A DNA stretch of 64,000 bases from the NCBI RefSeq assembly GCF_050920415.1, contig NZ_CP169309.1. The stretch is one strand, 5' to 3'. Source of the stretch: Escherichia coli. Its GTDB lineage: Bacteria; Pseudomonadota; Gammaproteobacteria; Enterobacterales; Enterobacteriaceae. The translations under genes were made by a program, and so were the position numbers. Of this stretch, positions 3,206-46,677 are shown piece after piece (position 1 is the first letter of the stretch; every line of letters begins with the position of its first letter). Under the pieces are notes generated by a model. It was not told the DNA's origin and made no database searches. It saw only the letters and a list, made by a program, of their open reading frames with translations.

Positions 3206-3403
3206 ATGAACAAGGATTTAGAATTGACCGTGGAGGATTTAAGCACGATTGCGGAATACATGCGCGGCGATGATCCTGATAAACCTGTCACTGTTGACAT
3301 GAAATATTTAAAAGGCGCTTACATGACAAGCTCGCGGCTAATTTCTTTGCAGGCGATTATGTATGCGCGGGCGCAATGGAAAAATAGCAACGGTGTATTA
3401 TGA
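3206..3403 (+). CDS. Hypothetical small phage protein (65 aa)
   Basis: Strong Shine-Dalgarno AAGGAGG 6 nt upstream of the ATG at 3206; stop overlaps the NinB-like start. Confidence 0.45.
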   Translation: MNKDLELTVEDLSTIAEYMRGDDPDKPVTVDMKYLKGAYMTSSRLISLQAIMYARAQWKNSNGVL

Positions 3404-3831
3404 GGCAAATTAGATTTGAAGTAGTTAATGACGCCGTGAAAGAAAATGCTATCAGGCAGATAAGGGAAATACAGCCTGATAGCAAAAGCCCGCTGATAAT
3501 TACCATCCAGGAGAAAACCCGCTCACTAAGCCAAAATGCGTTGCTTTGGGCGCTGCTAACCGACATTAGCGATCAGGTTAATTGGTACGGCAAGAAGCTG
3601 TCTCCGGAAGACTGGAAAGCGGTATTCACTGCCGGACTTAAGAAATATGGCGTCGTCCCTAACCTGGATAAATCCGGCTTCGTTGTATTGGGAACGTCTA
3701 CAAGCCGGATGAGCAAATCGGAATTCAGTGAACTAATCGAATTAATTTACTCGTTCGGTGCTGAACATAATGTCCAATGGTCGGGTGATACGAAATTAAA
3801 TGAGGAATTCATAAAACGCTGGGGGCAATAA
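3400..3831 (+). CDS. NinB-like recombination protein (lambda Orf/NinB family)
   Basis: 143 aa; pattern IQEKTRSLSQNALLWALLTDISDQVNWYGKKLSPEDWKAVFTAGL resembles lambda NinB as recalled from memory. Confidence 0.7.
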   Translation: MRQIRFEVVNDAVKENAIRQIREIQPDSKSPLIITIQEKTRSLSQNALLWALLTDISDQVNWYGKKLSPEDWKAVFTAGLKKYGVVPNLDKSGFVVLGTSTSRMSKSEFSELIELIYSFGAEHNVQWSGDTKLNEEFIKRWGQ

Positions 3832-4007
3832 TGGCGCGTTATTATATGGCTAAACCTACCGGAATTTTGTATAAGGTTGATGGCGAATACGTTTTTTATT
3901 TTCACAACCAGGCGCGAGAGTGGCGATTGTGTCACGCGCACTTTCAGCACGAAATAGAAAACCACCCTGAATATTTTATTAAGGTTGACAATGTAACGGT
4001 GGCGTAA
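3831..4007 (+). CDS. Hypothetical small phage protein (58 aa)
   Basis: ATG overlaps the NinB-like stop by 1 nt (TAATG); translation MARYYMAKPTGILYKVDGEYVFYFHNQAREWRLCHAHFQHEIENHPEYFIKVDNVTVA; below the ORF-track length cut-off. Confidence 0.35.
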   Translation: MARYYMAKPTGILYKVDGEYVFYFHNQAREWRLCHAHFQHEIENHPEYFIKVDNVTVA

Positions 4008-4022
4008 CTGAGGATAGGCAAA

Positions 4023-4667
4023 ATGAATAAACTTAAAGCAATTGGCGTAATTCGCCATCGTGTAGACCCGGACTACCCTTCTTTTGAGGTTGCCACATAC
4101 CGCAACGAATACCAATATGGATCATCTTTCCTTGTGGGTGTTCGCGCTGATACTGGCGGCACTTATTCAGTTATGGCGGCTTCATGTGTTTTTGAAGAAT
4201 ATAAAAATATAGATGATGACGGCATGAATAAAGAAAGCGAAATTATTGATGAATTAATCGAAGATGAGCGGCATGATTGCGATGCGCCGAAAGTCACGGA
4301 ATGGAAACCAGGAGAAAAGCCTCCGTGCGGCGTGTGGCTTGATTGTTATTATCCTGATGGCTATCACATTGGGATTTTAATGTTTAAATTTATCGGTGAT
4401 AAATACGGGGTATACACAGAAAAAGGCAGTATACAGAAAGAAAATGCTATTGAATGGGGTTTTTATAATTATTATTTATACGTTGATCCGAAAGAAAAAG
4501 CACTGGCACAAATTGCGTTTGCGTTGGCTGCTAAGGTTATTGGTGAGGATGCGGCAGGAGAAATAAATTTCAATCGTGATAATGATTATTCGCGTGATTA
4601 TCGGAATATGGCAAAAGCCATTATTAATGGGGATATCCCGCTAACTAAATATAACGGGGATAAGTGA
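4023..4667 (+). CDS. Hypothetical protein, AT-rich cargo ORF (214 aa), function unknown
   Basis: GAGGA ribosome-binding site; markedly lower GC than flanking genes; acidic stretch followed by a Cys/His-containing segment (HDCDAPKVTEWKPGEKPPCGVWLDCYYPDGYH). Confidence 0.5.
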   Translation: MNKLKAIGVIRHRVDPDYPSFEVATYRNEYQYGSSFLVGVRADTGGTYSVMAASCVFEEYKNIDDDGMNKESEIIDELIEDERHDCDAPKVTEWKPGEKPPCGVWLDCYYPDGYHIGILMFKFIGDKYGVYTEKGSIQKENAIEWGFYNYYLYVDPKEKALAQIAFALAAKVIGEDAAGEINFNRDNDYSRDYRNMAKAIINGDIPLTKYNGDK

Positions 4668-44292: not shown

Positions 44293-45099
44293 ATGATCGA
44301 AACGCTGCTTGAAGTGCGTAATTTAAGTAAAACGTTCCGTTACCGGACCGGCTGGTTTCGTCGTCAGACCGTAGAAGCGGTAAAACCTTTGAGCTTTACG
44401 CTACGTGAAGGCCAGACACTGGCGATCATTGGCGAGAATGGTTCTGGTAAATCCACGCTGGCGAAAATGCTGGCGGGAATGATAGAACCGACCAGCGGCG
44501 AGTTATTGATTGACGATCATCCGCTGCATTTTGGCGATTATTCCTTCCGTAGTCAGCGTATTCGCATGATTTTTCAGGATCCTTCGACCTCGTTGAATCC
44601 CCGTCAACGTATCTCGCAGATTCTTGATTTTCCACTGCGCTTGAACACCGATCTGGAACCTGAACAGCGTCGGAAACAGATTATTGAAACGATGCGGATG
44701 GTTGGGCTGCTACCGGATCACGTCAGTTACTATCCGCATATGTTGGCACCCGGGCAAAAACAGCGTCTGGGGCTGGCGCGCGCGCTGATATTGCGCCCAA
44801 AAGTCATTATTGCCGATGAAGCCCTCGCCTCACTGGATATGTCGATGCGTTCGCAGTTGATTAATCTGATGCTGGAGTTACAGGAAAAACAGGGCATTTC
44901 GTATATTTATGTTACCCAGCATATTGGGATGATGAAGCACATTAGCGACCAGGTACTGGTGATGCATCAGGGCGAGGTTGTCGAGCGAGGTAGTACTGCG
45001 GATGTGCTCGCCTCTCCGCTGCACGACCTCACTAAACGACTGATTGCCGGTCATTTTGGCGAGGCATTGACGGCGGATGCGTGGCGTAAGGACCGTTAA
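44293..45099 (+). CDS. sapF: ABC ATPase SapF
   Basis: 268 aa; Walker A GENGSGKST. Confidence 0.9.
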   Translation: MIETLLEVRNLSKTFRYRTGWFRRQTVEAVKPLSFTLREGQTLAIIGENGSGKSTLAKMLAGMIEPTSGELLIDDHPLHFGDYSFRSQRIRMIFQDPSTSLNPRQRISQILDFPLRLNTDLEPEQRRKQIIETMRMVGLLPDHVSYYPHMLAPGQKQRLGLARALILRPKVIIADEALASLDMSMRSQLINLMLELQEKQGISYIYVTQHIGMMKHISDQVLVMHQGEVVERGSTADVLASPLHDLTKRLIAGHFGEALTADAWRKDR

Positions 45100-45169
45100 T
45101 TTTCTGAATCAAGCTTGCAGAATATTCACCTCATTCTGACAGGGAAATTCATCCTGTCAGAATGAAGGG

Positions 45170-45532
45170 ATGGATAAAATAAAAGCAAATGCCCGCGATT
45201 TAAGACGCAACCTCACCCCGCAGGAGCGAAAGTTCTGGCGATATCTTCGCAGCCGACGTTTTGCTGATTTCAAATTTCGCCGTCAACATCCGGTGGGGAA
45301 TTACATTCTCGATTTTGCCTGTTGCTCTGCACGTTTAGCGGTAGAGCTTGATGGTGGGCAACATGATTCAGCTATCGCGTATGATACCAGGCGCACGCGC
45401 TGGCTTGAGTCCCAGGGCTGGACCGTGCTGCGTTTCTGGAATAACGAGATCGATCATAATGAAGAGGCGGTTCTGGGGGAGATTCTGCAGGAACTGAGCC
45501 GCCGGTCACCCTCACCCCAACCCTCTCCCTGA
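45170..45532 (+). CDS. ycjD: DUF559-family (endonuclease-like) protein
   Basis: 120-aa ORF; MDKIKANARDLRRNLTPQERKFWRYLRSRRF...; the 3' end runs into a repeat region. Confidence 0.7.
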   Translation: MDKIKANARDLRRNLTPQERKFWRYLRSRRFADFKFRRQHPVGNYILDFACCSARLAVELDGGQHDSAIAYDTRRTRWLESQGWTVLRFWNNEIDHNEEAVLGEILQELSRRSPSPQPSP

Positions 45533-45737
45533 AAGGGCGAGGGGGCTGTATGTGCCTGTTTGTTGCTGCGCAGGCAAATGAACAAGCGGTGCCGGGGATC
45601 ATTCTGCAGGAACTGAGCCGCCTGTTACCCTCTCCCTGAAAGGGCATGGGGGCTGTATGTGCCTGTTTGTTGCTGGGGTGACAACGCGCACAATCGGTCC
45701 CCTCGCCCCTCTGGGGAGAGGGTTAGGGTGAGGGGAA
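45482..45737. repeat. Tandem partial duplication of the ycjD 3' end plus flanking inverted repeats
   Basis: attctgcaggaactgagccgcc occurs at 45482 and 45601; ccctctccctgaaagggc(g/at)ggggctgtatgtgcctgtttgttgctg at 45521 and 45628; ccctcaccccaaccctctccc (45508) is inverted at gggagagggttagggtgaggg (45714). Confidence 0.7.
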
Positions 45738-45888
45738 AAGCGCACACCCGTGCCCACATTCCTGCCAACTATAGCCACTCACACCCAGGTTGATTATAAT
45801 AACCGTTTATCTGTTCGTACTGTTTATTCAAACGACGAATCGCCTGATTTTCAGGCAACAACAAGCATCAACAATAAGGATTAAAGCT

Positions 45889-46677
45889 ATGGGTTTTCTT
45901 TCCGGTAAGCGCATTCTGGTAACCGGTGTTGCCAGCAAACTGTCCATCGCCTACGGTATCGCTCAGGCGATGCACCGCGAAGGAGCTGAACTGGCATTCA
46001 CCTACCAGAACGACAAACTGAAAGGCCGCGTAGAAGAATTTGCCGCTCAATTGGGTTCTGACATCGTTCTGCAGTGCGATGTTGCAGAAGATGCCAGCAT
46101 CGACACCATGTTCGCTGAACTGGGTAAAGTTTGGCCGAAATTTGACGGCTTTGTACATTCCATTGGTTTTGCACCGGGCGATCAGCTGGATGGTGACTAT
46201 GTTAACGCCGTTACTCGTGAAGGCTTCAAAATTGCCCACGACATCAGCTCCTACAGCTTCGTTGCAATGGCAAAAGCTTGCCGCTCCATGCTGAATCCGG
46301 GCTCTGCCCTGCTGACCCTTTCCTACCTTGGCGCTGAGCGCGCTATCCCGAACTACAACGTTATGGGTCTGGCAAAAGCGTCTCTGGAAGCGAACGTGCG
46401 CTATATGGCGAACGCGATGGGTCCGGAAGGTGTGCGTGTTAACGCCATCTCTGCTGGTCCGATCCGTACTCTGGCGGCTTCCGGTATCAAAGACTTCCGC
46501 AAAATGCTGGCTCATTGCGAAGCCGTTACCCCGATTCGCCGTACCGTTACTATTGAAGATGTGGGTAACTCTGCGGCATTCCTGTGCTCCGATCTCTCTG
46601 CCGGTATCTCCGGTGAAGTGGTCCACGTTGACGGCGGTTTCAGCATCGCTGCAATGAACGAACTCGAACTGAAATAA
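45889..46677 (+). CDS. fabI: Enoyl-ACP reductase (NADH)
   Basis: [40 protein letters not shown]...; 262 aa. Confidence 0.95.

Follow-up and report, generated by a model that had tools for sequence, protein, structure and literature searches.

What lies between the end of ycjD and the start of fabI in Escherichia coli, and does it belong to the gene that it follows? The question is raised by a 64,000-nucleotide stretch of the E. coli sequence NZ_CP169309.1 (assembly GCF_050920415.1), called here the window and numbered from its first letter, in which sapD, sapF (ends 45099), ycjD (45170-45532), and fabI (starts 45889) follow one another on the + strand and the last codons of ycjD run into a cluster of GC-rich direct and inverted repeats. 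We find, with considerable confidence, an inverted pair of BoxC elements behind ycjD, with an old head-to-tail duplication of ~119 bp between them, in an array that is still recombining. Moreover, as far as sequence comparison reaches, YcjD-like DUF559 genes in many phyla are followed by a BoxC-type motif whose distance from the end of the conserved domain and whose orientation are constant. The motif runs C block, C block, loop, G block, and it usually has an inverted copy upstream of the gene, the two together forming lineage-specific terminal inverted repeats.

Identity and anatomy of the repeat cluster

The GC-rich element is identified, by its match to the published consensus, as BoxC, which has also appeared in print as PIT and as TMECO (triplex motif of E. 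coli) (Bergler 1992; Hoyne & Maher 2000/2002; Holder et al. 2015, PMC4666352). The TMECO consensus is CCCTCNCCC-N3-6-GGGNGAGGG-N3-GGGNGAGGG, with 23 copies in MG1655 that are described as strictly intergenic (Holder et al. 2015, PMC4666352). A regular expression for this consensus matches two stretches of the window, 45700-45734 (+) and 45509-45543 (-), and the motif was found nowhere else in the 64 kb; the hairpin core pattern likewise has its sole locus here, with 0 expected. The gene fabI was formerly called envM. The earliest BoxC description, as cited by Holder et al. (PMC4666352), is that of Bergler et al. 1992 in a paper on envM, and the ycjD-fabI spacer is thus the type locus of BoxC.

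Three copies can be recognized (Table 1). The 36 nucleotides of copy 3 are identical to TMECO no. 9 of MG1655 (1,351,239-1,351,204, at 29 min, between ycjD and fabI; PMC4666352), and this copy with its tail, 45683-45737, is the inverted partner of copy 1. Copy 2 does not fit the TMECO consensus and folds weakly (DNA z=0.07, computed for Watson-Crick hairpins). A further trait of the BoxC/TMECO family is an intrastrand triplex of the purine motif, formed in vitro. As a repeat, BoxC is dispersed: searched with a BoxC-A query, 5,426 complete E. coli genomes show a median of 19 places each. It is not strictly intergenic here, copy 1 overlapping ycjD codons 113-120 and the stop, while copies 2 and 3 do lie between genes. 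The final eight codons of ycjD (SPSPQPSP) and the TGA are the C-rich strand of copy 1, with the TGA sitting in the hairpin loop. As in the TMECO described by Holder et al., a type-A copy is paired with a partner in the opposite orientation and the sequence varies locally. The second loop of copy 1 is TTG, which is neither the TTA of type A nor the CCG of type B, and the two complete copies lie 156 nt apart, compared with 16-59 nt for the K-12 pairs, because the tandem duplication lies between them.

That duplication was recovered by a repeat search of the window as two direct pairs, 45458-45517 with 45577-45636 (60 nt, 83%) and 45520-45577 with 45627-45684 (58 nt, 90%), beside an inverted pair, 45509-45560 with 45683-45734 (52 nt, 79%). 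In a gapped alignment, both direct repeats merge into one contiguous head-to-tail duplication whose units, 45458-45576 and 45577-45683, match at 93 of 107 positions (87%) with a single 12-nt indel (CACCCTCACCCC); the BoxC of the second unit lacks the 12-nt third block. Both units open with the last ~48 nt of the ycjD frame (NEEAVLGEILQELSR...), pass into the GC-rich element, and end in a tail of ~30 nt. Against 200 dinucleotide-preserving shuffles of 45300-45900, the direct local score of 50 compares with a shuffle maximum of 14 and the inverted score of 24.5 with one of 12.5. Tandem Repeats Finder did not report the array, presumably owing to the indel and the divergence of the units, and an Rfam scan of 44900-46100 returned only two chance matches to microRNA models (E ~0.6-0.9).

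The repeats that a sequence-only reading of this DNA had pointed out are thus confirmed, by repeat search and gapped alignment and with scores far beyond those of the shuffles, and its choice between insertion of a repetitive element and slipped duplication need not be made, since three BoxC/TMECO copies and a tandem duplication are both present at the end of a DUF559 gene. Its suggestion that the C-terminus of YcjD might be altered has also held up: the last eight codons and the stop belong to BoxC, the 12-nt block varies between alleles, the gene is a pseudogene in strain 167, and the protein cluster P0001 has lost the stop. In this last case (134 aa, 99% identical to the YcjD of the window), it is the stop in the hairpin loop that is lost, and the frame reads on through the G-rich arm (...PSPQRGEGAVCACLLLG).

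Table 1. Coordinates of ycjD, the repeat units, the BoxC copies and the fabI promoter-like site in the window
Feature	Position	Strand	Description	Basis
ycjD	45170..45532	+	DUF559 / Vsr-fold PD-(D/E)XK nuclease, 120 aa	Open reading frame list; RefSeq annotation of identical strain
Tandem unit 1	45458..45576 (119 nt)	+	Final 48 nt of the ycjD frame ahead of BoxC, complete BoxC, tail	
Tandem unit 2	45577..45683 (107 nt)	+	Non-coding repeat of the 3' end of ycjD (translation would be NEQAVPGIILQELSRLLPSP*), degenerate BoxC, tail	
BoxC copy 1	45509..45543	-	Complete TMECO: CCCTCGCCC TTTCA GGGAGAGGG TTG GGGTGAGGG	Regular expression for the Holder consensus
BoxC copy 2	45628..45651	+	Hairpin core only, 2 mismatches (CCCTCTCCC TGAAA GGGCATGGGG)	
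BoxC copy 3	45700..45735	+	Complete type-A TMECO	Consensus regular expression; Table 1 of PMC4666352
fabI promoter-like site	45772..45800	+	TAGCCA-17-TATAAT; downstream of and outside the repeat cluster	

Two further observations concern the surroundings of the gene and the motif. On the left side of the ycjD insert, between sapF and ycjD, a palindrome at 45130-45167 stops 2 nt short of the ycjD ATG; relative to K-12, its two arms differ by paired changes (GACAGG/CCTGTC versus GACAA/TTGTC), and a consensus scan finds promoter-like hexamers in it on both strands. The final ~20 nt before the ycjD start resemble those of the Enterobacter and Phytobacter cassettes described below (GGCAGAGTGTGGGGATGGAAAT). 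The palindrome may be the left part of an enterobacterial cassette, or an operator of ycjD, or the terminator of sapF. In K-12, the TMECO pairs 7/8, 10/11, and 12/13 (our loci L010, L011, and L012) each consist of types A and B around a conserved 27-nt spacer (AACAGGCCRGCAYYGGYGCGAA..TTA); hence each pair is one composite repeat of ~100 bp and not two independent insertions.

History of the array within E. coli

The stretch 45100-45900 was used as a query against the 5,426 complete genomes. Only one of them, NZ_CP169399.1, is 100% identical over the whole query, and the allele of the window is present at >=99% identity in 5/5,426. Some 3,370 genomes carry ycjD, at ~82% identity over the query stretch, and another ~2,050 match the fabI promoter part alone. 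In one example of the latter group (L003), the place of ycjD is taken by an RND efflux operon and a TetR gene. The same alternation was described by Pugh et al. (2026, PMC12817139), who find that most phylogroups carry eefRABCD, that ycjD occurs in A, B1, and C as well as in ST69 and ST182, and that in the last two it has a 12-nt insertion at its 3' end. Our alignments identify these 12 nt as the third block of BoxC copy 1, a block that the window and JNE12-007 possess and K-12 lacks.

The two-unit layout is shared by a K-12-like strain and by JNE12-007. Compared by position, the first units of K-12 and JNE12-007 are 95% identical and their second units 93%, whereas the first and second units within one strain agree at only 80% in K-12, 75% in JNE12-007, and 87% in the window. 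Since the units pair by position across alleles, the duplication must be older than the split of the window, K-12-like, and JNE12-type alleles. The second unit of the window agrees with those of the other alleles at 79-83%, and by eye both units of the window combine a 5' part of the first-unit type with a tail of the second-unit type. This points to gene conversion in the history of the window allele, or else to a collapse of the array followed by re-duplication, as read from the pattern of matches.

Comparison of the alleles also shows that the array still recombines. From the 3' end of ycjD to fabI, the distance is 501, 503, 509, or 529 bp across a spread sample of genomes, and 395 bp in strain 167 (L107, 301-695). 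Alignment shows that strain 167 has lost exactly 106 bp, that is, one tandem unit, and that the junction falls in a 23-nt stretch, GGAGACGGTGCTGGAGAATATTC, which is common to both units in K-12. Its ycjD is fused to the second unit, and RefSeq marks the gene as a pseudogene that lacks its C-terminus. The tail predicted for such a fusion is carried by four protein clusters (P0015, P0016, P0058, and P0087), one of which, P0058, is named by its source as Shigella dysenteriae.

As a side observation, the segment from sapF to the end of ycjD (44293-45532) is unusually divergent, the window matching K-12 at 95.5% over sapF, 86.8% over the core of ycjD, and 98.4% over fabI. Among protein clusters named for other species, the nearest comes from Escherichia ruysiae (88%). 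This suggests that the segment is an imported or an old allele.

YcjD-like genes in other Enterobacteriaceae

A database search found homologues of YcjD at 55-70% identity in Klebsiella, Kluyvera, Enterobacter, Lelliottia, Phytobacter, Scandinavium, Franconibacter, and others. Nearly all of them end in ...PSPRPSP*, which is a translated type-B TMECO (CCCTCACCC CGG CCCTCTCCC TGA). Salmonella, for which Holder et al. report no TMECO and for which a cassette model would predict no close YcjD homologue, is absent from the named ones of the best 120 clusters. Their genes occupy different places in the genome and are thus not related by simple orthology: hemW / yggN in Enterobacter asburiae, DUF1202 / yggN in Phytobacter, an ABC-transporter binding protein and a Dyp peroxidase (yfeX) in Klebsiella, and, for a more distant homologue, a site between two-component genes. 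In Enterobacter and Phytobacter, the gene is followed by an opposite-strand TMECO over its stop, a gap of 11-38 nt, and a type-A TMECO, which is the E. coli layout minus the duplication. Klebsiella (L018 and L019, ~3373-3560) has about three tandem repeats of ~96 bp between the motif that overlaps the stop and a degenerate type-A motif, every one of them holding the hairpin CCCTCTCCCTCAGCGAGAGGG; here a duplication like that in E. coli has taken place independently. A practical observation from the same set is that the short-read contigs L016, L017, and L020 end 5 to 53 nt past the DUF559 stop (L016 and L017 at 5 nt), inside the BoxC-type repeat. The repeat evidently breaks short-read assemblies, and DUF559 genes of this type will therefore often be found at contig ends.

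Association of DUF559 genes with BoxC-type motifs across phyla

How far the association extends was judged from proteins and from loci. A search of 1.84 billion cluster representatives gave 26,450 DUF559 relatives (50%-identity clusters) at E<=1e-3. Among the best 150 of these, 145 were new representatives, and most of their 145 C-terminal tails look, by eye, like a translated C-block/loop/G-block (PSPQPSP..GEG, PLPNPSPARGEG, TPSPPAPLPxAGEG, LTQTLSQRER); a strict regular expression accepts 33/145. As a side observation, in P0121, P0122, P0127, and others, the YcjD-like domain occurs in long representatives (377-1214 aa) or in two or three matched stretches.

Guided by an alignment of 57 diverse members, we fetched 80 loci from many phyla, including Proteobacteria, Melainabacteria, Chloroflexi, Nitrospirota, Elusimicrobia, and Gracilibacteria, and scanned the gene strand for hairpins in which a C-rich and a complementary G-rich arm enclose a loop, whether or not a third block was present. 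Between +10 and +55 nt past the conserved domain, the scan found 48 motifs with the third (C) block upstream, 1 in the opposite orientation, and 6 plain hairpins. The offset past the domain has a median of +31 nt and an interquartile range of 30-34. In 493 kb of background more than 300 nt from the genes, the two orientations were found 19 and 16 times, from which ~0.14 motifs are expected where 48 were seen. The opposite orientation was seen for 41 motifs upstream of the gene (-150..+5), and the same orientation for 16. Inverted motifs bracket the gene at 33/80 loci, and at 5 loci the layout is that of E. coli.

When the upstream flank was compared with the reverse complement of the downstream flank, 40/76 loci scored >=20, against 23/451 cross-locus pairs, and the flanking inverted repeats reach 77 nt at ~97% identity. 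The variant of a locus recurs more than 300 nt from its gene, within 4 kb, at 9/65 loci compared with 1/192 in the cross-locus control, a count made on regional sequence. At the loci of two distant homologues (L021 and L022), one motif lies just before the gene and an inverted one over its end. At another (L025), the motif over the gene end has the unusual loop CTTGT, and the same loop is found in two further intergenic copies on the contig. Independent tandem copies of the 3' motif were seen in three unrelated metagenome genomes (L038, L063, and L075).

Several metagenome genomes hold two or three copies of gene and repeats together. In a Legionella metagenome genome with two (L078 and L106, ~3924-4430), the copies agree at 89% over 339 nt. 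Their match runs from one inverted-repeat tip to the other and breaks off there, with unrelated sequence on either side. The terminal inverted repeats, 77 nt long, are made up of two hairpins and a third block; the left one matches the right one of the same copy at ~97%, whereas between the two copies the repeats agree at ~80%. The DUF559 gene and its repeats form a unit of fixed geometry that occurs at non-orthologous sites, is present in multiple copies, and has its ends set by the repeats.

The protein YcjD matches the NCBIfam model NF007294 (YcjD) with 233.8 bits against a cut-off of 218 and PDB entry 3HRL with E=2e-28. The precomputed assignments of its homologues are PF04480/PF18741, PF04480 being DUF559. 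The family-invariant residues D48, E59, D61, G62, R75, R88, and W90 are present, and the three acidic ones (D48, E59, and D61) are invariant across the 57 aligned diverse members. A place for YcjD in a known defence system was considered and dropped: PADLOC and NCBIfam gave only marginal matches to the nuclease domains of large proteins.

Discussion

What was flagged at this locus is in itself known and ordinary for E. coli: BoxC has been on record here since 1992, the copy next to fabI is TMECO no. 9, and the 12-nt difference between alleles has been in the literature since 2026. From the geometry, the scattered sites, and the multiple copies, we infer that the gene and its repeats make up a small mobile cassette of ~0.5 kb. 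Whether the Vsr-fold nuclease acts on BoxC-type repeats, with the dispersed BoxCs of E. coli as non-autonomous relatives or targets of the cassette, is a matter on which the sequence evidence leaves us evenly balanced at best. This action is made plausible by the retained acidic residues, by the 3HRL and NF007294 matches, and by the presence of a homing endonuclease in the same clade. The fullest form of the idea would have BoxC-type repeats as the termini of ~0.5-kb cassettes that span phyla, with the DUF559 nuclease, their sole gene, recognizing, cutting, and spreading the repeats; we hold it tentatively, as somewhat less than an even chance.

A number of observations weigh against this proposal and should be kept together. 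No three-block motif was found under strict criteria at 22/80 loci, and the two Legionella copies show no evident target-site duplication. In the window and in the other Enterobacteriaceae, both BoxCs lie downstream of the gene and none upstream, so that the gene is not flanked on both sides. The solo BoxCs of K-12 do not look like remnants of DUF559 3' ends: 9 of 18 TMECO loci were read, and they are short intergenic gaps with no ycjD-like sequence. Nor does the number of BoxCs track ycjD in a useful way. Over the 5,426 genomes, there is only a loose difference, confounded by phylogeny, with 16-30 BoxC matches in ycjD-positive chromosomes and 2-20 in ycjD-negative ones (14 in O157:H7, 2-6 in some such as CFT073, and 11-20 in others). 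We know of no activity of DUF559 proteins on such DNA. Finally, Holder et al. (PMC4666352) found TMECO not to be associated with mobile elements and reported no stable triplex in vivo.

Several other explanations of the locus have to be considered. An assembly or sequencing artefact in a GC-rich repeat, a doubt that the sequence-only reading had itself raised, would fit the short-read contigs L016 and L017, which break at the motif 5 nt past the DUF559 stop. It has a negligible chance of being right, given that complete genomes match the window, one at 100% and four further at >=99%, and that a homologous layout with the same duplication in K-12-like alleles is found in thousands of complete genomes, MG1655 included. 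The same reading had proposed a local event, and a purely local slipped-strand duplication or repeat insertion, specific to the strain and lying behind an ordinary gene, would account for the rarity of the window allele and for its units being more alike than those of K-12 or JNE12-007. We consider this very improbable. K-12-like and JNE12-type alleles share the two-unit layout with units that pair by position, and a BoxC over the stop recurs in other genera and at other loci as a trait of the family at large, which the sequence-only reading had itself named as grounds for giving up a local event.

A further proposal of the sequence-only reading, a terminator or insulator ahead of fabI, gained no support. 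In its broadest form, the inverted repeat would be a functional cis-element, acting as a terminator, as a 3' structure that stabilizes the mRNA, or as an insulator that shields the promoter of the essential gene fabI from ycjD transcription. The RNA of 45480-45745 folds into one long stem of copy 1 with copy 3 (-136 kcal/mol, z = -5.8), and the cluster lies directly upstream of the promoter-like site of fabI; a low folding energy is, on the other side, to be expected of any inverted repeat. A consensus scan found no GC-rich stem followed by a T-run on either strand between 45480 and 45740. Earlier work on these elements, as summarized by Holder et al. 2015 (PMC4666352), found neither promoter nor terminator activity. 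Moreover, the fabI promoter-like site is conserved in genomes that lack ycjD: the ~2,050 genomes without the cluster keep the fabI promoter, and those with the eef operon retain the promoter region at 96-98% identity without any BoxC. A cis-regulatory role of the cluster is thus unlikely, and we give the functional cis-element as a whole a low probability.

The most substantial alternative is that gene and repeat are associated with no relation of enzyme to substrate. The repeats might spread by themselves or by means of the host and insert preferentially at the ends of DUF559 genes, or the gene might have a preference for insertion into palindromic BoxC doublets, in which case the flanking "terminal repeats" would be the two halves of a pre-existing target. 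The gene-less doublets of K-12 with their 27-nt spacer could be empty targets of this kind. Within one genome, the two repeats that bound a cassette resemble each other more closely than they resemble those of a second cassette, as would be the case for halves of a palindrome, and BoxCs persist in E. coli that lack ycjD. Set against this is the constancy of offset (median +31, interquartile range 30-34) and orientation (48:1) across phyla. This constancy calls for a very specific and conserved insertion rule, which implies that the repeat is recognized by something encoded with it. The homing endonuclease in the Vsr/DUF559 clade (PMC3424549) also speaks for an enzyme at work. On balance, we regard association alone as rather unlikely.

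The duplication at ycjD probably arose by slippage, template switching, or unequal exchange at repeats prone to form structures, and in strain 167 one unit was lost by recombination across the 23-nt identical stretch. If the nuclease acts on the repeats, it would drive their spread, their homogenization, and the local instability around them. Two variants of this reading can be envisaged, one in which gene-less BoxCs are non-autonomous derivatives of the cassette and one in which the gene homes into palindromic BoxC doublets. The gene-less doublets of K-12, with their conserved spacer, could be derivatives according to the former or empty targets according to the latter.

The first variant has a familiar model. 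REP (repetitive extragenic palindromic) and BIME (bacterial interspersed mosaic element) sequences are short, GC-rich, structured intergenic repeats, and in the REPIN-RAYT (REP-associated tyrosine transposase) system, a low-copy gene for an HUH Y1 transposase is flanked by inverted copies of the genome's own repeat variant. The likeness is that here, too, there are short, GC-rich, structured, dispersed intergenic repeats, and a nuclease gene in single or low copy is, at many of the loci in other bacteria, flanked by inverted repeats, which may be of the genome's own variant and seem to co-vary with the gene flanks. The protein, however, is a Vsr-fold PD-(D/E)XK nuclease where REPIN-RAYT has an HUH Y1 transposase, a third block accompanies the hairpin of the repeat, and in Enterobacteriaceae both repeats lie downstream, so that one may speak of analogy and not of membership. 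Small insertion sequences (IS) and miniature inverted-repeat transposable elements (MITEs) resemble the cassette in that the unit is bounded by inverted repeats of 35-77 nt, the Legionella copies are homologous only from tip to tip, and gene-less doublets occur in K-12; unlike them, the cassette encodes no protein of a recognized transposase family, and no duplication of its target site is evident. No autonomous IS known to us is as small as this unit of ~0.5 kb. For the homing variant, there is the Vsr-like homing endonuclease I-Bth0305I, which belongs to a PD-(D/E)XK clade with Vsr and DUF559 (PMC3424549). It shares the fold clade of YcjD and offers a precedent for a selfish, self-propagating gene with this fold. 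It differs in being intron-encoded, and no flanking repeats are mentioned for it in PMC3424549.

We found no paper that links DUF559 to BoxC in a literature search that fell short of most subscription journals, and the words "DUF559", "ycjD", and "endonuclease" have zero occurrences in PMC4666352. What is new here is that BoxC supplies the end codons and the stop of ycjD and that gene and repeat are linked across phyla, and this link is the part worth following. The ycjD-fabI locus also shows how BoxC clusters generate variation, through tandem duplication, loss of units that truncates or extends the protein, and homogenization, and it thereby lends concrete support to the "genomic instability" reported around these motifs. 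Two puzzles, the origin and function of BoxC, which Holder et al. (PMC4666352) called unclear, and the function of DUF559, are found to be physically linked. If the cassette reading is true, it would give DUF559 a function and BoxC an origin.

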